DNA of 64,000 bases. Source: Candidatus Xenobia bacterium. Its GTDB lineage: Bacteria > Vulcanimicrobiota > Xenobia > Xenobiales > QWHO01. The position numbers and the translations under genes were made by a program. Below the pieces are notes generated by a model. It saw only the letters and a list, made by a program, of their open reading frames with translations. It was not told the origin of the DNA and made no database searches. The stretch spans positions 192,001-256,000 of the forward strand of contig BTUM01000001.1 in assembly GCA_045863235.1 (NCBI GenBank). Direction: 5' to 3'. Below are positions 13,838 through 26,159 of the stretch, piece after piece; position 1 is the stretch's first letter, and the number at the start of each line of letters is the position of its first letter.

Positions 13838-14980
13838 ATGGCCAAAGCCAACAACCGCGACCGAGGCCTCATCCAGTATCCTGACGGAACCTGGGGCGTG
13901 CTGTGCGTCCTGGGTGGCAGCCGACATAAGCGCAAGGTTGGCACGAAGGACCAGGCCCGCGCCTACTACACGTGGTGCCAGCAGCAGAATCGTGAGCGGG
14001 CTCGGGGCGACTGGGTGGAGCCAGAGCCCGAGCTCGAGCTCCCGACGGTGGAGGCAGCGGTCGAGGAGTTCCTGGAGATTCGCCGGGCCCGGGGCAGCGA
14101 GTCGTCGCTGGCTGGTTACCGGGGCAACGGCCGGCTCTTCAATGAGCTTTACGGGGGACTGAGACTGGACCAGCTGACCCCCCGCCTGGTGGAGGCCTTC
14201 GTTCGGGGGCGGCTCGAGGCGGGGGTGTCGCCGGCGACGGTCAACCGCCAGCTCGCCTTCCTGAAGGGCGTGTACCGGGAGGCTGCCAGGAACCTGCCCG
14301 CCGACTGGCAGAACCCGATGGCCCGGGTGAAGATGCTGCGGGAGGACACGCACCGGGAGTCCTTCCTGACGCCGGAGCAGCAGGAGCGGCTCCGGGATCA
14401 CCTGCCGAGGTGGTGCTGGCTCCTGGTGGTGGTGGCGGTGCTGACCGGGGTCCGCCAGGGGAACTTGCTGCGGCTCCGGCGCGGCGACGTCGATCGGGAG
14501 CGCAAGATGGCCAGGCTGCCCCGGACGAAGGACGGGAAGCACTTCTGGGTCCACTTGTCCGACCAGGCCCTGGCCGCGCTGCTCGAGCAGATGGGGGAGC
14601 GTGAGGATGAGGAGTCCTGCCGGGACGAGCTGGTCTGGGCGACGTCAGCCGGCACGCCCATCAACCCGGCCAATCTGCACAACCGCGTCTGGAAGCCGGC
14701 TCTGAAGGCGGCGGGCATCGAGGGGTTCCGTTGGCACGACCTCCGTCACACGACGGCCCAGCGGCTGATCGAGCTGGCGGGCTACGACCTTTACACCGTG
14801 CAGAAGCTGCTGGGGCACAAGCACCCCAAGACGACCCAGCGCTATGCTCAGTTGAGCGAAGCTCACCTGCGGAAGGCTGCAGAAGCGCTTTCAACAGTCG
14901 GGCCGGCACTCGTTCAAGTGCCCCCGGTGGGATTACCACGAAATGACCACCCGGCCGATCGAACATTCTCGGACAACTAG
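13838..14980 (+). CDS. Tyrosine integrase (prophage)
   Basis: TGVR, K, HDLRH, LLGH, TQRY; ends 34 bp before att repeat. Confidence 0.95.
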   Translation: MAKANNRDRGLIQYPDGTWGVLCVLGGSRHKRKVGTKDQARAYYTWCQQQNRERARGDWVEPEPELELPTVEAAVEEFLEIRRARGSESSLAGYRGNGRLFNELYGGLRLDQLTPRLVEAFVRGRLEAGVSPATVNRQLAFLKGVYREAARNLPADWQNPMARVKMLREDTHRESFLTPEQQERLRDHLPRWCWLLVVVAVLTGVRQGNLLRLRRGDVDRERKMARLPRTKDGKHFWVHLSDQALAALLEQMGEREDEESCRDELVWATSAGTPINPANLHNRVWKPALKAAGIEGFRWHDLRHTTAQRLIELAGYDLYTVQKLLGHKHPKTTQRYAQLSEAHLRKAAEALSTVGPALVQVPPVGLPRNDHPADRTFSDN

Positions 14981-15014: not shown

Positions 15015-15091
15015 ACTGAAAATCGCAGTGTCGCCAGTTCAATTCTGGCCCTCGGCACCAACGATAAGCCCGCTCCAGAGCGGGCTTTCGT
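15015..15091 (+). repeat. att repeat copy 1: tRNA-Phe(GAA) 3' half (15015-15060, ends CCA) plus terminator
   Basis: ACTGAAAATCGCAG...GTTCAATTC...CTCGGCACCA; identical over 77 bp to 23228-23304; no tRNA 5' half. Confidence 0.93.
15066..15088 (+). terminator. Hairpin terminator after tRNA fragment
   Basis: AAGCCCGCTC-CA-GAGCGGGCTTT. Confidence 0.7.
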
Positions 15092-15151
15092 GTTTGTCGG
15101 GCAGCTGATAGGACTGTCAAACACAGTCCTAAACAGGCAAATTCAGGGAAG

Positions 15152-15251: not shown

Positions 15252-15536
15252 GTGAAAGCCATCGCGCTCGTTCTCGCCTTTATGCTCTGCTGGCTGCCCG
15301 CGCTGGCGGGCAGGTGCACTGGCTCCGGTCCTTGCAACGCTTGCAGCACGTGTAGCAGTTGCGCTCACTGCAAAGCCGGGGGAACCTGTGGGGTCTGTGC
15401 GCCGTCCAAGCCTCGCGCTCAGCCGACCAGGCAGCCCGGGCAGACCGTACAGCGCTGCCAGGCGACCACTAAGAAGGGTACCCAGTGCAAGCGGTCGGCC
15501 AAGCCCGGCTCGAGCGCCTGTTGGCAGCACCAGTAA
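15252..15536 (+). CDS. Secreted Cys-rich small protein
   Basis: Signal peptide, 8-Cys module, C-terminal CQATTKKGTQC...CWQH module. Confidence 0.8.
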   Translation: MKAIALVLAFMLCWLPALAGRCTGSGPCNACSTCSSCAHCKAGGTCGVCAPSKPRAQPTRQPGQTVQRCQATTKKGTQCKRSAKPGSSACWQHQ

Positions 15537-18421: not shown

Positions 18422-19111
18422 TCAGCCACGGGCGGGCCTACCGTTCAGGGCAGCGCGGCGTTTCTCGCGCTCGGCCTCCAGGTAGGCAGGGGTAAAGAGC
18501 CCGGGGTTTTGGGCGGCCAGGTCGGCCAGCTCGGCCTCGAATTCCTCCTCCGTCTGGTAGCCCCCGACAGGGGGGCTGCCAGCACCGGAACGGATCGTCA
18601 GAGACGTTCCTTTCTTTAATCTTTCTTTAGGGGCGCTGGAAGCCGCATGGTTGCTTGCTCCCAGGGCCGTAGGGGTTACCGATTCGGTAACGGGGGGGTT
18701 ACCGATTTGGTAACGGGTACCGATTCGGTAACGGGGGGGGGTTACCGATTCGGTAACGGGGTCACCCGTCGGTTCTGGCTTCGGGTCGCCATTCCAGCGC
18801 TCTGGCCGGGGTTCAAAAAAGTACTCGGTGGCGGTACATTTTTGAGCATTTGGGGGGGTGACCCGGCTGATAATGCCCCTCTCTTCGAGCCCCCGGATGG
18901 CCAGACTGACATGGGTCTTGGCCAGGCCGGTAGCTTCAGCCAGTTCGGCCAGGCCGACCGAGACCCGGCAGCTCTTGCGGCGGTCTCGCCAGCCCAGGAT
19001 TCTGCGCTGCACCAGGGCGAGCCAGACTCGCAGTTCGCGGGCGGTGAGGTCGGCCCGGGCAATTGCGTCGGTGATATGGTTGGGCACCCGAGCGAAGCCC
19101 TGCCGCCTCAC
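18422..19111 (-). CDS. Lambda O-like replication initiator
   Basis: GFARVPN..DAIARADLT.RELRV...GW, wHTH, internal iterons, KERLKK. Confidence 0.8.
   Translation of the reverse strand: MRRQGFARVPNHITDAIARADLTARELRVWLALVQRRILGWRDRRKSCRVSVGLAELAEATGLAKTHVSLAIRGLEERGIISRVTPPNAQKCTATEYFFEPRPERWNGDPKPEPTGDPVTESVTPPRYRIGTRYQIGNPPVTESVTPTALGASNHAASSAPKERLKKGTSLTIRSGAGSPPVGGYQTEEEFEAELADLAAQNPGLFTPAYLEAEREKRRAALNGRPARG
18675..18757. repeat. Replication origin: four 17-bp palindromic iterons
   Basis: GTTACCGATTCGGTAAC consensus at 18675, 18698, 18716, 18741; AT-rich tract near 18607-18630. Confidence 0.85.
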
Positions 19112-20787
19112 GGGAGCAGCTCCTCGTATCGCCGGGGCTCGGGCTCGCGGGGTTCGATGGTGTGCAAACTGAGGGTCGCTGGCTGCCAGTGCAGCTCTAT
19201 GCTGCCCGTTGCGCCCTCGCGGTTCTTGGCCAGGGTGATCACGACGGTGCGCGGGGCCTCGCCCTCGGTCACGGTGCCGGGGCGCCGGTGCAACAACACC
19301 ACCTTGTTGGCCGCTTGCTCCAGCTCGCCAGAGTCTCGCAGGTCCGTCAGCCCGGGCGGGTCGTCGGGCCGGGCGGGCCGCTTGAGCTGCACCAGGGCCA
19401 GCAGCGGCAGTTCGAGCCGCTGAGCCAGGATTTTCAGTTCCCTCGCCACCAGCGACACTCGCTCGTAGCTCGAGCTTATGCTGCCTCGGGGGCGCACCAG
19501 GCCAAGATAGTCGAGCACCACCAGGGCGGCGTCAGGGTGCTGACGCCGGAAGGTATCGGCCAGGCCTTGCACTTCCTCCAGGGCGGCGCCCGTGTCGCAC
19601 AGATACAGCCGGGGGTACTCGCCCCGGACTCGCTCGATGCGGTCGGCGGTCACTTCGTCGTGGCCGATCTGCAAATGCTGTTGCACCAGGCGCCCGGCTA
19701 CCTCCAAGGCGCTCATCTCGAGCGTGATGAGCAGCACGGGGCCATGGGCCCGGCTGACATTGGCGGCCACCTGCAAGCCGAAGGCGCTCTTGCCTTCGCC
19801 GGGGCGTCCACCGAGCAGCACCAGTTGACCGGGCCCGAGCCCCTGGGTCAGGGCGTCAACGCGGCGCAGGCCGGTGCTGACGTAGCCTTCCCTTTGGCGC
19901 CCCTGGCGGTACCGTTCGGCCAGCTCGCCGAGCACGTCCGGCATGGGTGACCAGGGCGCTCGAGCAGCTTCAGGCTCGGGCTCGATGGCGGCCAGCTCGG
20001 GCTCGGGAGCCCCGGCGGCCAGGGCGAGGAGTCGCTCTCGTTGCCCCCCGGCATCGAGCCAGTCTGACAGGTCCGCGCCCTTGCCAGGGCTCGAGCCCGG
20101 CGGCCAATGCTCGGCCAGGTCGAGGAGGCGGACGGTGGCTCCGGCCTGCCTGAGCCGGGTGGCGATGGTCGAGGCATACTTGCGGCCCGGGTCGTCGTGG
20201 TCGGGGATGATGACGACCTGTCGGCCCCGGAGTAGCTCCAGGGCATCCTGGCCCAGCTTGCCGGCGGTACCCGAGCCTCCGGGGGAGGTCGTGGCCACCA
20301 GCCCGAGCCGGGCGGCCCGGTCGGCGTCTTTCTCGCCCTCGCACCACACGATCGGGGCGGTCGGGTCAGCAGCCAGCAGCTCGGGCAAGCGGTAGGGCAG
20401 GGTTGTGGCGGGAGCCCGGTGCTCCCATTCGAGCCCAGCCCAGCGAGCCTGGAAGAACTGCTTCCCGGGCCGCCGGGTCACCCGATGGTAGGGCTCACCG
20501 GCCGCGTCGCGGTAAACGTAGGTCGCCTCGGGCTCGGTGCGCTGGTGGCGCTCATGGCCAGGCCGGTCGGGTGGCGCCGGGAGCCCGGCCAGGTCGGCCA
20601 GGCCCCAGACGGTGGTGGGGGCGCACCCGGCCATGCACCGACAGCCACCAGTCTCGAAGTTGACCCTTAAGCTTGGGCGGCTGTCCCGGTGCATCGGGCA
20701 AATGGCGCTGAGCCAGGGGCCCTCGGCGTCGGGTCGAGCCCGATGAAGGTGGGTCAGGGCCCACGCGGCCAGGGGCCCCGCGCTCAA
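19108..20787 (-). CDS. Primase-helicase fusion (Zn finger, TOPRIM, DnaB-like SF4 helicase)
   Basis: CPMH..C...C; CEGEKD and DHD; GGRPGEGKS, LEM, DYL, LRDSGELEQ, KNREG. Confidence 0.92.
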   Translation of the reverse strand: MSAGPLAAWALTHLHRARPDAEGPWLSAICPMHRDSRPSLRVNFETGGCRCMAGCAPTTVWGLADLAGLPAPPDRPGHERHQRTEPEATYVYRDAAGEPYHRVTRRPGKQFFQARWAGLEWEHRAPATTLPYRLPELLAADPTAPIVWCEGEKDADRAARLGLVATTSPGGSGTAGKLGQDALELLRGRQVVIIPDHDDPGRKYASTIATRLRQAGATVRLLDLAEHWPPGSSPGKGADLSDWLDAGGQRERLLALAAGAPEPELAAIEPEPEAARAPWSPMPDVLGELAERYRQGRQREGYVSTGLRRVDALTQGLGPGQLVLLGGRPGEGKSAFGLQVAANVSRAHGPVLLITLEMSALEVAGRLVQQHLQIGHDEVTADRIERVRGEYPRLYLCDTGAALEEVQGLADTFRRQHPDAALVVLDYLGLVRPRGSISSSYERVSLVARELKILAQRLELPLLALVQLKRPARPDDPPGLTDLRDSGELEQAANKVVLLHRRPGTVTEGEAPRTVVITLAKNREGATGSIELHWQPATLSLHTIEPREPEPRRYEELLP

Positions 20788-21649: not shown

Positions 21650-22096
21650 ATGGAACCGAGTAATCGACTAGAGGAAATCCTCAACGCCTTGCGCTGGCAA
21701 GCTATGAGGTATCCGAACCGTTACCCCAATCTTACATTGAGCCAGATCGCGGGCAGACTCGGCGTCTCTGACGAGCAACTTCGGCTCTATAGACAGGGAA
21801 AGCACAGCATCTGCCGCATTCAAGGGCCGCTGGCCATCCTCTGCGCTGAGTATGGGCTGGGGCAAAGCCTGGATATGCCAAACTCCACGCTCACTACCGT
21901 CGCATGCCGGGAGGACGACCAGGCCAAGCATGATTGGCTCCCGATAAGTCGCCGCTTTTGGGAGTTGGCTCCCCGTCGGAGCCGTAAGACCGAATTAGTT
22001 CGAACGCTGGAAGACTTATCTCACGCTAAAGCAACTTCGCCACCGCCGCGTGCTGGTGCTGGGGCTGAAGATGGGCGTACCGCATCACCATCGTGA
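21650..22096 (+). CDS. Divergent HTH regulator (candidate repressor)
   Basis: LTLSQIAGRLGVSDEQLRLYRQG. Confidence 0.6.
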   Translation: MEPSNRLEEILNALRWQAMRYPNRYPNLTLSQIAGRLGVSDEQLRLYRQGKHSICRIQGPLAILCAEYGLGQSLDMPNSTLTTVACREDDQAKHDWLPISRRFWELAPRRSRKTELVRTLEDLSHAKATSPPPRAGAGAEDGRTASPS

Positions 22097-23099
22097 GGGT
22101 TCGGTGCCCGAGCAGTTCCTTCAACGTGAGTAGGTCCACCCCGGCCATCGCCAGCTTCGAGGCGAAGCAATGCCGCAGGTCGTGCCAGTGGAAGTCCTCG
22201 ATGCCTGCCTGGTCGAGCGCTGGCTTGAAGCGCCGCCGGCAGAAGTTGTTGGCTGCCAGGTGCGTCTCGGGCAGCGACTTGCCATCGGGGCCGAAGCGCC
22301 CATGATTCTTGGACGGGAAGACCCACTGTGACCCAGCGGCGTCTTCCTTCAGGTCGCGCAAAATCTCCACGGCCCGATCGTTCAGTGGCACGTTGCGCTT
22401 CAGCCCGTGCTTCGAACGCGGGATGGTTAGGAAGCGCGTGGTAAAGTTCACGCTGGCCCAGCGCAGCGTGAACTGCTCTTCCTGGCGCAGGCCGGTCAGG
22501 ATGGCCAATTCCACCAGCAGCCAGGCCTTCGGGTCCATCTTCTCGCGCAGGGAGGCCAACTCTTTATCGTCCAGGTAACGGCAGCGAGCGTTGTTCTCCA
22601 CCAGGAGCTTGACTTTCCCCCTGGTGAACGGGGAGCTCTCGAGCAGCCCATCGCGTAGAGCCAGTGAGAACAGGCGCCGCAGAAAGGCCAGGTGCCGGTT
22701 GCAGGTGGCGGGGGCGTAGCTCCTGGCTGCCTCGAGCTTCCAGCGCTCGAGGTCGCGAGGCTGGATCTGATCGAGCCGCGCCCCGGGGAGCGCAGCCTCC
22801 CAGCAGCGCACGTGCTCTTCATCCCGTTTCCAGGTGCGTTTCGCCTTCAGCTCAGCTTCAAATTCATGGTAGGCCTCGCGGATCGTGGGGGCGAGCTTCT
22901 CTCTCCGGTTGCGCTCCGGCAGAATCTTTCCTTCAAGCTTTTCGGCTTGGCGTTTGGCATAGAGGAGTCTGGCATTCGCCTTCGTTCCAGCCTTCTGCCG
23001 GTTCCGCTTGCCATCTTTGTCAAACCAGCAGACCCACCAGATAGCGCTGCCCTTTGGGTGCTCATAGAGCCCGCGATCCTTACCGCCTGGTCGTGCCAA
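22026..23099 (-). CDS. Tyrosine integrase (satellite)
   Basis: TGLR, K, HDLRH, LLGH, MRYAH. Confidence 0.95.
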   Translation of the reverse strand: MARPGGKDRGLYEHPKGSAIWWVCWFDKDGKRNRQKAGTKANARLLYAKRQAEKLEGKILPERNRREKLAPTIREAYHEFEAELKAKRTWKRDEEHVRCWEAALPGARLDQIQPRDLERWKLEAARSYAPATCNRHLAFLRRLFSLALRDGLLESSPFTRGKVKLLVENNARCRYLDDKELASLREKMDPKAWLLVELAILTGLRQEEQFTLRWASVNFTTRFLTIPRSKHGLKRNVPLNDRAVEILRDLKEDAAGSQWVFPSKNHGRFGPDGKSLPETHLAANNFCRRRFKPALDQAGIEDFHWHDLRHCFASKLAMAGVDLLTLKELLGHRTLTMVMRYAHLQPQHQHAAVAKLL

Positions 23100-23227: not shown

Positions 23228-23304
23228 ACTGAAAATCGCAGTGTCGCCAGTTCAATTCTGGCCCTCGGCACCAACGATAAGCCCGCTCCAGAGCGGGCTT
23301 TCGT
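23228..23304 (+). repeat. att repeat copy 2: tRNA-Phe 3' half (to CCA at 23273) plus terminator
   Basis: Identical to 15015-15091; no acceptor-stem 5' strand upstream. Confidence 0.93.
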
Positions 23305-23721
23305 ATTTGTAGTCCATGTTCCCGGAGCGCTTCATCCCGGACTGCCAGCCTCAGGGGGCGGCCCGCTACCGCGCCGCTCCCGATAGTGCCCCGTTTGGAA
23401 CTCCTCCGTGATAGTCTGGTCGGTCTTTAGCGCGGGGCTAAGACCGCAGAACGTTGTTACGCACGCAGTCGAACCCGCTTTCTTCGCTCAATAGAAGGAC
23501 CCGACGCAACTGCTGTCCTGTTGACGACAGGTGCGACTGCAGTTGCGCCAGGTCAGTCCCCATTCTACGCTGCCTCGTTCAACGGATTATCAACGGTCGA
23601 TCTCCCGCCGGCTGCCAACAGGCTGATGCGCTCACGATCGGGTCTTCCGACTCCCCGCAACAGCTATGCCCAGTCCGAGGCGGCCGACAGGTGAGCCCAG
23701 CCGGGACCCGAATCCCTCTCC

Positions 23722-24021
23722 ATGGACCAGCAACAACGCCGACGTCTCACCGACATCCTCTACCTGGGAGGCGCCACCATCGCAGCCGTTTCGGTGGGCC
23801 TGCTCATGCGTGGCTCGCCCGAGCCGCTGGCGGCCAGCACCCACAGCCCCAGCCCGACTCCGTCGGCCACCGCCTCGCACACCCCGGTGCCCTCGCCGGT
23901 GCAGATCGCGCCCGAGCCTGACAACTGCCCGGCCTGCGGCATGGCTGTGCGGGTCCATCGCGATCAAGACTTCATTGAGCGCACCCAGAAGATCCAACAA
24001 GAGAAACCTTCCAAGCCGTGA
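23722..24021 (+). CDS. Putative MNIO substrate/RiPP precursor with CPACGM motif
   Basis: N-terminal hydrophobic segment, P/S/T linker, DNCPACGMA; GTGA overlap with DUF692 gene. Confidence 0.75.
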   Translation: MDQQQRRRLTDILYLGGATIAAVSVGLLMRGSPEPLAASTHSPSPTPSATASHTPVPSPVQIAPEPDNCPACGMAVRVHRDQDFIERTQKIQQEKPSKP

Positions 24022-24911
24022 AACCGGGCTGTCCCGGCGTGGGGTTGGCCCTGTCGGGCCATCCCAGCCACGTCGAGCTGCTCAGGCCGCTGGCCGAGCT
24101 GGTCGACTTCCTTGAGGTCTGTCCCGAGCAGCTTTGGAACAGTCAGACCGAGCTCAGCTCACGGGTCGAGCTCTATGAGCAGCTCAAGGACGAAACCGGC
24201 AAGCCGTTCGTGGCTCACGGGCTGGGCCTGTCACTGGGCACCCCCCTGTCCACTCCCGAGGAGGTATCGCGCACCGAGCGCTGGCTGAGCCAGATCGCCC
24301 GCCTGCACGAGCGGCTCGAGCTGGAGTGGTACACCGACCACCTGGGCAGCTCCCACACCGCCGGGGGACTGGTCACCGGCCTGCACCTGCCCTTGCCCCA
24401 CACGGACGAAGCCGTTCAGGCGGTGAAGGAGCGATTGGAGCGGCTCCGCCGCATCGTGCCCCTGGTGGGCTTCGAGAACACGGTCTTCTACTTCACCCTG
24501 GAGGACCCGATGCAGGAGGCGAGCTTCTACAACCGCCTCTGCCGAGAAACGGGCGCCCGCCTGCTGCTCGATCTGCACAACGTCTATGCCCACTGCCGGA
24601 ACTTCGGCCTGGACCCGCTGGCCTTCGTGGGCAAGATCGACCTTGCCAACGTGCTCGAGCTGCACCTGAGCGGGGGCAGCGAGAGCGACCCCTCCTGGTT
24701 GGACGGTCCCGTGCTGCGACTCGATTCGCATGACGGCCCGGTGCCCGAGCCGGTCTGGGAGCTGCTCGACGAGGTGTTGCCCCGCTGCCCCGCGGTGCGG
24801 GGCGTGACCCTGGAGCGCATCGAGGGGACCATCGAGCCCCAGGACGTGCCGCTGCTGCGCCAGGAGCTAGAGCGAATCCGCCTGGCGGTGGCGCAGAAAG
24901 CTCTCCCATAG
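24018..24911 (+). CDS. DUF692 multinuclear non-heme iron oxidative enzyme (MNIO)
   Basis: EVCPE, HGLGLSLG, TDHL, EN, LLLDLHNVY, ELHLSG, DSHDGPVPEPVW, LER. Confidence 0.93.
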   Translation: MKPGCPGVGLALSGHPSHVELLRPLAELVDFLEVCPEQLWNSQTELSSRVELYEQLKDETGKPFVAHGLGLSLGTPLSTPEEVSRTERWLSQIARLHERLELEWYTDHLGSSHTAGGLVTGLHLPLPHTDEAVQAVKERLERLRRIVPLVGFENTVFYFTLEDPMQEASFYNRLCRETGARLLLDLHNVYAHCRNFGLDPLAFVGKIDLANVLELHLSGGSESDPSWLDGPVLRLDSHDGPVPEPVWELLDEVLPRCPAVRGVTLERIEGTIEPQDVPLLRQELERIRLAVAQKALP

Positions 24912-25178
24912 AGCCGCTTCCTCGGCCGGAAAGTAGGCCTGCGGGGGCACTTCCCGGTGGTAAGCCAGGAAGTCGCGCGTGAAGCCGTCCGGGTCTCGGT
25001 CGTAGAGCTCGCGGTAGCGGGCTTCGGCCCGCATGACCCGGTCGAAGCGGAGCTTGAGGATGATGGTGGCGGCAAGTCGCAAGCCCTGGGGGTCCAGGCC
25101 AAGATCGCTCAACTCGCGCTCGGGCTCGGCCGAGACCAGCGCCCGGGCCAGCCGCTCCTGCAGATCGGCCAGCCTCAC
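24867..25178 (-). CDS. DUF692-associated partner-like helical protein
   Basis: LADLQ..LARALV...GLD..GL.LAA..I.KLR...F...FLAY resembles small MNIO partner domains. Confidence 0.55.
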   Translation of the reverse strand: MRLADLQERLARALVSAEPERELSDLGLDPQGLRLAATIILKLRFDRVMRAEARYRELYDRDPDGFTRDFLAYHREVPPQAYFPAEEAALWESFLRHRQADSL

Positions 25179-25665: not shown

Positions 25666-25920
25666 TCAAGAACGCGGCGGAAGCCCCTTTTTCTTGCGCA
25701 GGGCATTGATCTCGTCCAGCAATTCAGCCCGCTGCTCCTTGAGCCTCTTGACACGGGCGTGCCGCTCTTCGATGACCGGCAGGACGGCCTCGAGCTCCTT
25801 CAGCTGGCTCTCGAGTTGAACGACTTGCTGGCGCGTCTGCTCAATCTCTTGCTCTACCCGGGGGCTGGCGCAGCCCGGGCCAAGTACGAGCAGCAGCAAC
25901 AGGAGAGTCGCTTCTCTCAT
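25666..25920 (-). CDS. Small coiled-coil lipoprotein
   Basis: Hydrophobic leader, GPGC lipobox-like site, heptads. Confidence 0.7.
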   Translation of the reverse strand: MREATLLLLLLVLGPGCASPRVEQEIEQTRQQVVQLESQLKELEAVLPVIEERHARVKRLKEQRAELLDEINALRKKKGLPPRS

Positions 25921-26159
25921 TTGCCCGCCTTCAGGTCCTCGAGCTCTTGCTGGAGGATGACGAGCTCGCGCTCGAGCGCCTGCAACTCCTCGGTCAGGCG
26001 GGGCAGGTCCTGGATCTCTCGCTTGGACGCCTCGATGGTTTTCTCCAGGAAAGCGACCTGTTGCGTGAGCTGAGCCAGCTCCTTCTGCTGCTCGCTCGTC
26101 CCGGAGCAGCCGAAAGTCGTGACCGACAACAGGAGCAGAAAGGCAAGAATCCCCCGCAT
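25917..26159 (-). CDS. Small coiled-coil lipoprotein
   Basis: Hydrophobic leader, TFGC, heptads. Confidence 0.7.
   Translation of the reverse strand: MRGILAFLLLLSVTTFGCSGTSEQQKELAQLTQQVAFLEKTIEASKREIQDLPRLTEELQALERELVILQQELEDLKAGK

Follow-up and report, generated by a model that had tools for sequence, protein, structure and literature searches.

Gene Content of the Locus

The locus lies in a window of 64,000 nucleotides, which is the whole stretch of DNA analysed, and it consists of three genes, not two. These are a putative precursor A of 99 residues (23722..24021, + strand), an MNIO (DUF692) enzyme H of 297 residues without a C-terminal helical bundle (24018..24911, + strand), and Hc, an all-helical protein of 103 residues (24867..25178, − strand) that is the helical partner of H. 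The initial annotation had described a 99-residue ORF translationally coupled to a DUF692 enzyme, and this was confirmed: the stop codon of A overlaps the GTG start of H (GTGA), and H matched PF05114 with E=2e-45 and 155 bits (gathering score 25). Hc is convergent with H and overlaps its 3′ end by 45 nt. It had also been stated that no ChrI-like membrane partner is adjacent, which is literally correct, but the adjoining nonmembrane partner was missed; the annotated span ended at the start codon of the Hc gene.

The start of Hc overlaps the stop of an unrelated gene of 164 residues, and Hc is the last in a chain of overlapping minus-strand ORFs, so it is probably transcribed apart from A and H, in a convergent transcript. 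This hydrophobic 164-residue ORF was considered as a ChrI-like membrane partner and rejected. It was left out of the system because it matched no Pfam or NCBIfam model and, together with its two neighbours, was present only in the same-genus loci among the 91 loci. Contigs from 4 RNA runs covered parts of the locus at a low, flat depth (about 4–6 in X1), intergenic DNA included, and gave no sign of transcription or strand. The search for sigma-70-like promoters returned 0, against 0.3 expected.

All three ORFs were intact, with third-position-biased changes, in three genomes, namely, the window's genome and two same-genus relatives; the DNA of one relative was 89% identical. The orthologs of A in L001 and L002 were 91–93% identical. 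When the two same-genus relatives were compared, synonymous and nonsynonymous changes were 12:7 and 27:9 in A and 13:7 and 22:12 in Hc. Enzyme and partner co-occurred in the same 5 genomes of the order (5/40), and the cluster was not found in 2 of the 4 other genomes of the genus (97% and 65% complete).

The Putative Precursor

Residues 1–30 of A (23722..23811, +) contain a triple Arg together with a hydrophobic stretch and probably act as a signal-anchor or a degenerate Tat signal. The Kyte-Doolittle mean over 19 residues peaks at 1.57, which is borderline for a transmembrane helix. The three Arg are followed by Leu-Thr and do not match the strict Tat motif; however, the same-order ortholog in L006 has a canonical RRDF motif and TatC is encoded in the window's genome, and on these grounds we read the “anchor” as, most probably, a Tat signal that has degenerated. 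The peptide had been proposed to be membrane-tethered; the hydrophobic stretch is there, while the tethering itself is uncertain. The P/S/T spacer already described was found at residues 32–66 (23815..23919, +), with 21 P/S/T among its 35 residues, and is the most variable part. The core CPACGMA (residues 69–75; 23926..23946, +) contains Cys69 and Cys72, the only cysteines of A, which has no lipobox Cys. The follower (residues 76–99; 23947..24018, +) keeps Phe84 and Ile85 and is otherwise diverged. It amounts to 24 residues after CPACGMA; the 25 reported before are those that follow CPACGM.

In the same two relatives, residues 1–30 of A had synonymous to nonsynonymous ratios of 9:1 and 10:1, residues 31–67 had 4 and 5 nonsynonymous changes with respect to L001 and L002, and residues 68–75 had none. 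Against the model NF050125 (ChrA_rel_RiPP) the match was weak, with 17 bits and a cut-off of 40, and residues 61–75 gave a weak match to HMBD (E=0.02, below the cut-off).

Sites were also ranked with a matrix whose training set comprised 16 CxxC tags and left out the Eremiobacterota loci. The tag of A was rank 1 of the 20,431 CG sites in the six frames of the genome, and it drops to 3rd-4th when all tags are in the training. Scored alone, the follower took rank 867–2054 of 22,155 CG sites, and this low rank indicates that the follower of A is diverged. A holds the only clear tag in the window's genome, and no convincing further substrate in trans was found in its 135,929 frames.

The Enzyme and Its Clade

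Residues H67, H108, E153, D185, N188, H216, D236, H238, and E266 of H were invariant in 39 homologs, and among them H67, H108, D185, H216, D236, and H238 correspond, by spacing alone, to H65, H102, D179, H210, D228, and H230 of DybH. With the ChrH model NF050165, H reached 112 bits (cut-off 600) over model positions 59–265 of 363, and 13 further members of its clade gave 97–125 bits, below the same cut-off. With the BufB and HvfB models it reached 124 bits each, where the cut-offs are 310 and 360. H is not a ChrH equivalog, and the locus is neither a DAG-RiPP nor a bufferin locus. Over the 14 clade members the scores on ChrH (97–125 bits) were close to those on BufB (99–139 bits), while three MNIOs outside the clade gave 40–53 bits on ChrH and 140–345 bits on BufB. 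These profile score ratios suggest that the clade of H is a neighbour of ChrH. The Atlas clusters nearest to H and Hc were mostly from Myxococcota and Planctomycetota.

The window's genome carries a second MNIO, which is of bufferin type (L093; G000:C3:9149-9835) and scores 345 bits on BufB, above the cut-off. A DUF2063-like frame comes after it, with no identifiable precursor.

The Partner Hc

Hc matched the C-terminal extension of 7 long fused homologs, with E from 4e-17 to 1e-5, among the 120 homologs listed. The Hc domain was then located in 76 distinct loci, which are the 91 fetched minus duplicates and more distant MNIOs: it was a separate gene on the same strand as the enzyme in 57 and fused to it in 7; 3 loci had it on the opposite strand, and it was not detected in the remaining 9, of which 8 had no room for it on the contig. 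The three opposite-strand loci all belong to the window's genus. A quick tree, built without ChrH references, grouped them together (support 100) beside the same-strand loci L006 and L015 (91), which suggests that the convergent arrangement is derived. The three-gene system is real and conserved, and the locus is a minimal member of the clade neighbouring ChrH; its new contributions are a convergent partner gene and, in Eremiobacterota, the short-peptide form.

No Pfam or NCBIfam model matched Hc, PF09836 included. Its structural model was all-helical, with a pLDDT of 96. The search against 48,161 solved chains gave as top folds 3dee (NGO1945), with Z 6.5 (rmsd 3.4, 67 aligned residues), and MbnC, with Z 6.3 (rmsd 3.6, 81 aligned), both below the level at which the tool is reliable for helical proteins; TglI appeared at rank 14 (Z 4.3). 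Foldseek returned nothing for Hc at E<=0.001. In the Atlas its neighbours were SCO6045_C and MbnC-like, with a TM of 0.71 to a DUF2063 cluster. The family is bounded, with 334 clusters at 50% identity, 294 of them at E<=1e-10, and most homologs are longer than Hc by about 18 residues. Its profile was unrelated to that of the carriers described below. The fused C-terminal domain of the 7 proteins gave no alignment to positions 293–363 of the ChrH model, and among the 35 longer matches to the Hc profile there was no fusion named ChrH, which is weak evidence.

Homologs of Hc are present in cultured Sorangium strains, which may offer a native host. In one protein of 291 residues (P0128) the Hc-domain homolog is fused to a GNAT acetyltransferase domain, which hints at an extra acylation step in some clusters.

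The Tag and Its Carriers in Related Loci

An unfiltered six-frame search of 89 loci, keeping duplicates and leaving out L010 and L011 as other MNIO types, gave 34 CxxCG[MLR][GA] motifs. All of them sit 15–40 residues before the stop and none is terminal (0/34). The extension is thus conserved in the homologous precursors, and the possibility that A is a read-through mutant of a terminal motif is ruled out. A Phe occurs 8-9 residues past the motif in 32/34, and in the family alignment A3 the Phe at +12 from the second Cys, which in A is Phe84, is nearly invariant. Searching with a profile of these tails brought up many more carriers. The consensus of the 84 unique tags was CG[M75,R5,L4][G52,A30]-x8-F[L/I], where the last column is partly circular since the tags were chosen with a filter requiring the Phe-Leu segment. 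The tail past the motif comprises 15–39 residues, and its length beyond the Phe-Leu segment varies.

CxxC was present in only 23 of the 84 tags, and the other 61 had no Cys at −3; the previous Cys was located 14–20 residues upstream in 52/84, and a first Cys was found within 29 residues in every tag (84/84). Ala after CGM is common in the clade, occurring in 30/84 tags and in 13 of the 23 CxxC tags.

The strict Tat motif M-x0-10-RRxF[LIMFV] was found in 46 of 65 assessable carriers against 44 of 11,465 control frames, and most carriers with this motif have 230–330 residues. The 50 large carriers formed one connected family, and none of them (0/50) was named by Pfam. The model of one (pLDDT 92) showed a thioredoxin-like N-terminal domain (best Z 5.8, with consistent top hits), and Foldseek gave nothing for it at E<=0.001. 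In this model the Phe-Leu segment of the tag (RFLxF) is a confidently placed β-strand, which does not support the idea of a helical follower. Considering this strand, the segment may be a structural rather than a recognition element. Short unstructured carriers like A were found in L006, L008, L009, L034, and L079. The relatives of the locus probably single out exported peptides and proteins, by means of a short C-terminal tag, as targets of cysteine modification.

The tag profile matched 7 of 401 genomes of the phylum, the same 7 that hold the enzyme of the clade. Since these 7 were in the training of the profile, and the scoring took in no more than 19 candidates from each genome, only the lack of matches in the other 394 is informative. 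A second weak match in G046 (E=4e-4) was not C-terminal and looks like chance. None of 17 viral CPACGMG matches was beside an MNIO.

Several loci (L022, L025, L031, L035, L053, L072, L086, L087, and others) contain two or three paralogous tagged Tat proteins of about 300 residues, sometimes with one CxxC form and one long-spacing form per operon. One carrier, located beside a fused enzyme in L007 (2384-2926, −), shows as many as three CGMA repeats ahead of its final CxxC tag.

Comparison with Known Systems

The chemistry of the related enzymes has been described in bioRxiv 10.64898/2026.10.27.762324: a thioaldehyde forms at the second Cys, the hydantoin is made from the following Gly and Met, the ring closes last, by the first Cys or an outside thiol, and methylation is spontaneous. 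According to PMC13056109, the substrates of ChrH, DybH, and MelH are CPxCGxG motifs, usually C-terminal, with embedded variants allowed, and they include secreted proteins above 30 kDa and lipoproteins. The same paper reports that DybH and ChrH are active without ChrI, which is dispensable, that MelH requires a separately encoded helical MelHc, that Archangium ArlA, with an embedded CPACGMMM, is converted to a −4 Da and a methylated form, and that small Myxococcota and Planctomycetota clusters belong to the ChrH subfamily.

In the light of these reports, several of the grounds on which the locus had been presented as novel were lost. A nonterminal motif is already published and modified in ArlA (PMC13056109), and the missing ChrI is no distinction, given that ChrI is dispensable. 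The Ala ending is frequent in the clade tags and falls at none of the reacting residues of DybA, and the thiomethyl step lost its weight, as S-methylation appears to be nonenzymatic. A chryseobasin-related MNIO locus in another lineage was nonetheless borne out, one same-genus relative being assigned to Candidatus Eremiobacteraeota, and it is a distinct variant on other grounds: a separate enzyme clade, a follower tag in fixed register, and Tat export.

The closest likenesses are the following. ArlA/ArlH resembles A/H in its embedded CPACGM, a seventh residue other than Gly, and the lack of ChrI; ArlA, compared by description only, differs in having about 6.5 kDa with its tag and in reading CPACGMMM. 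MelA1/MelH/MelHc of Ca. Melainabacteria shares an MNIO without the bundle and a small separate partner, and also exported large-protein substrates, as in the clade described here. However, MelA1 ends in CPACGMG and has an SPI signal and TPRs, whereas here the motif is internal, the signals are of Tat type, and the large carriers are thioredoxin-like; the partner is on the opposite strand, unlike MelHc. ChrA/ChrH(I) and DybA/DybH (PMC10214503, PMC13056109, bioRxiv 10.64898/2026.10.27.762324) have in common with A/H the CPACGM core, the iron-ligand pattern, and an export signal instead of a leader. Chryseobasin and DAG-RiPP systems as described have a terminal CPxCGxG, a fused bundle, and a model of 363 positions, on which H falls far below the cut-off, and the DybA type of DAG-RiPP bears a lipobox Cys after the signal peptide that A lacks.

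Hc recalls the DUF2063-like PME-type 2 partners, MbnC, the N-domain of TglI, and SCO6045_C in being a short helical domain encoded beside an MNIO. PMC12452194 defines the PME-type 2 partners and ties them to precursors without Sec signals; from these Hc differs in matching no Pfam or NCBIfam model, in forming its own bounded family, and in having no RRE part. The bufferin and oxazolin systems (BufABC, HvfABC) have a DUF2063 partner, and neither the lack of a PF09836 match in Hc nor the scores of H agree with them. The main text of PMC12452194, as far as it was accessible, does not mention Tat, Myxococcota, or Planctomycetota. In the literature searched, neither a description of the follower tag, the Tat link, or the long Cys spacing nor any experiment on the clade was found; supplementary tables could hold members of the clade.

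Proposed Mechanism and Its Alternatives

Taking into account the same CGM site and the architecture of enzyme plus helical domain, H most likely works like DybH and MelH. H and Hc would form a cytoplasmic heterodimer, as MelH and MelHc do, that finds its substrate by the C-terminal tag CG[M/R][G/A]-x8-F[L/I] and not by a leader, so that the N-terminus would be free to serve as the export signal. The iron centre would oxidise Cys72 to a thioaldehyde, Gly73 and Met74 would rearrange into a hydantoin, and Cys69 would close a thioether macrocycle. As in DybA, the net change would be −4 Da, one thiol would stay free, and no methylation by an enzyme would be involved. This DybH-type hydantoin and macrocycle is the likeliest chemistry by analogy, and it is borrowed from the neighbouring family because H scores far below the ChrH cut-off and the fused domain does not align. 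The follower would be retained, considering that no gene for a dedicated protease was seen next to the cluster. The product would be exported via Tat and either remain tethered by the signal-anchor on the P/S/T stalk or be freed by signal peptidase I. Because it is a thioredoxin-like domain that bears this tag in the large relatives, the product may be guessed to serve as a thiol- or metal-reactive group outside the cytoplasm, although this is doubtful. Altogether, a three-gene MNIO modification system of an uncharacterised clade neighbouring ChrH, DybH, and MelH, operating by this mechanism, seems to us probable, though by no means assured.

The wider reading would be a portable form of protein tagging, in which an MNIO and its partner read a C-terminal tag of about 17 residues and install a hydantoin and a thioether cross-link on Tat substrates of varied size, the window showing its minimal form, in which the partner has passed to a transcript convergent with the other two genes. 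We put this forward tentatively, as possible rather than probable. If it is true, the substrates would range from peptides of about 100 residues with a 4-residue ring to thioredoxin-like proteins of about 300, the partner Cys, mostly 14–20 residues upstream, would produce macrocycles far larger than the chryseobasins described in the available parts of the literature, and MNIO modification would be tied to Tat export, which the accessible text of two surveys does not mention. If the proposed mechanism holds, the locus would be a compact test case (a substrate of 99 residues, an enzyme of 297, and a partner of 103) of a widespread MNIO clade. It would probe ChrH-type chemistry with variable ring size and action inside a chain, useful for enzymatic macrocyclisation. 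With Hc on the opposite strand, operon-based mining would miss it here, and coexpression without Hc would probably fail, as with MelH.

The same genes and tag might instead serve another chemistry, with Cys72 or both cysteines converted to a thiooxazole or an oxazolone-thioamide, as in bufferins and oxazolins, to give an exported metal chelator. The scores of H on BufB and HvfB, as high as on ChrH, agree with this, as do the weak HMBD match of A and the 61 tags without a Cys at −3, in which a ring of ChrA size is impossible. We consider it unlikely, however, since 124 bits is far under what a true member attains (345 for the bufferin-type MNIO of the same genome), the tags conserve CG and Met like DybA, whose hydantoin arises from Gly and Met, every tag has a first Cys within 29 residues and DybH can take another thiol once the first Cys is removed, and the neighbours scanned included no recognisable metal-homeostasis gene. 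It is also conceivable, if rather improbable, that the locus is a plain member of the ChrH subfamily, akin to ArlAH, MelH/Hc, and the Myxococcota and Planctomycetota clusters, and that only host and gene order are new. The small clusters, embedded motif, and split helical domain in PMC13056109 speak for it, and so do the Atlas clusters closest to H and Hc. What separates the clade is the complete lack of terminal motifs, the Tat signals, the thioredoxin-like carriers, and the long Cys spacing, to which the missing ChrH-named fusions add little.

Removal of the follower is common RiPP logic, and cleavage after modification would leave a ChrA-like product with a near-terminal core. The variable length of the tail past the Phe-Leu segment would fit such a cut, but scanning of the neighbouring ORFs revealed no recognisable peptidase, the large-carrier model places the tail with confidence as a strand, and ArlA is modified with its motif embedded; we therefore take cleavage to be quite unlikely. 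Lastly, A could be no substrate at all, or the cluster could be decaying in the genus after the rearrangement of the partner. The diverged follower and signal of A, the shorter Hc, and the failure to find the cluster in two of the other genus genomes point this way, yet three genomes have all the ORFs intact, with changes biased to third positions, and A is the best tag match of its genome, which makes this reading very improbable.

Surroundings of the Locus

Upstream of the locus, an 83-nt direct repeat, 99% identical, occupies positions 15015-15097 and 23228-23310 of the window. Its sequence corresponds to the 3′ portion of a gene for tRNA-Phe together with a terminator-like hairpin; ARAGORN detected no tRNA anywhere in the window. 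The MNIO cluster of L001 comes directly after an intact tRNA-Val/Asp/Phe array. Between the repeats lies a satellite-like element of 8.2 kb. It encodes a tyrosine integrase (22026-23099), a primase-helicase (19108-20787), and an HTH protein, and it has a RepO-like gene in which there are iteron-like repeats of 30 nt. To the left of the first att-like repeat, positions ~14500-14900 look by eye like the final part of another tyrosine integrase, which suggests that elements lie in tandem at the same tRNA site. An ORF of 94 residues (15252-15536, +) at the edge of the element has a signal-like N-terminus and about 11 Cys, with a CxxCxxCxxCxxC run; it could be a small metal-binding or RiPP-like protein. 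On the other side of the locus, at 25666-26159 (−), there are two overlapping short coiled-coil ORFs of 84 and 80 residues, which bear signals and a lipobox-like Cys and have a paralogous pair on contig C145.
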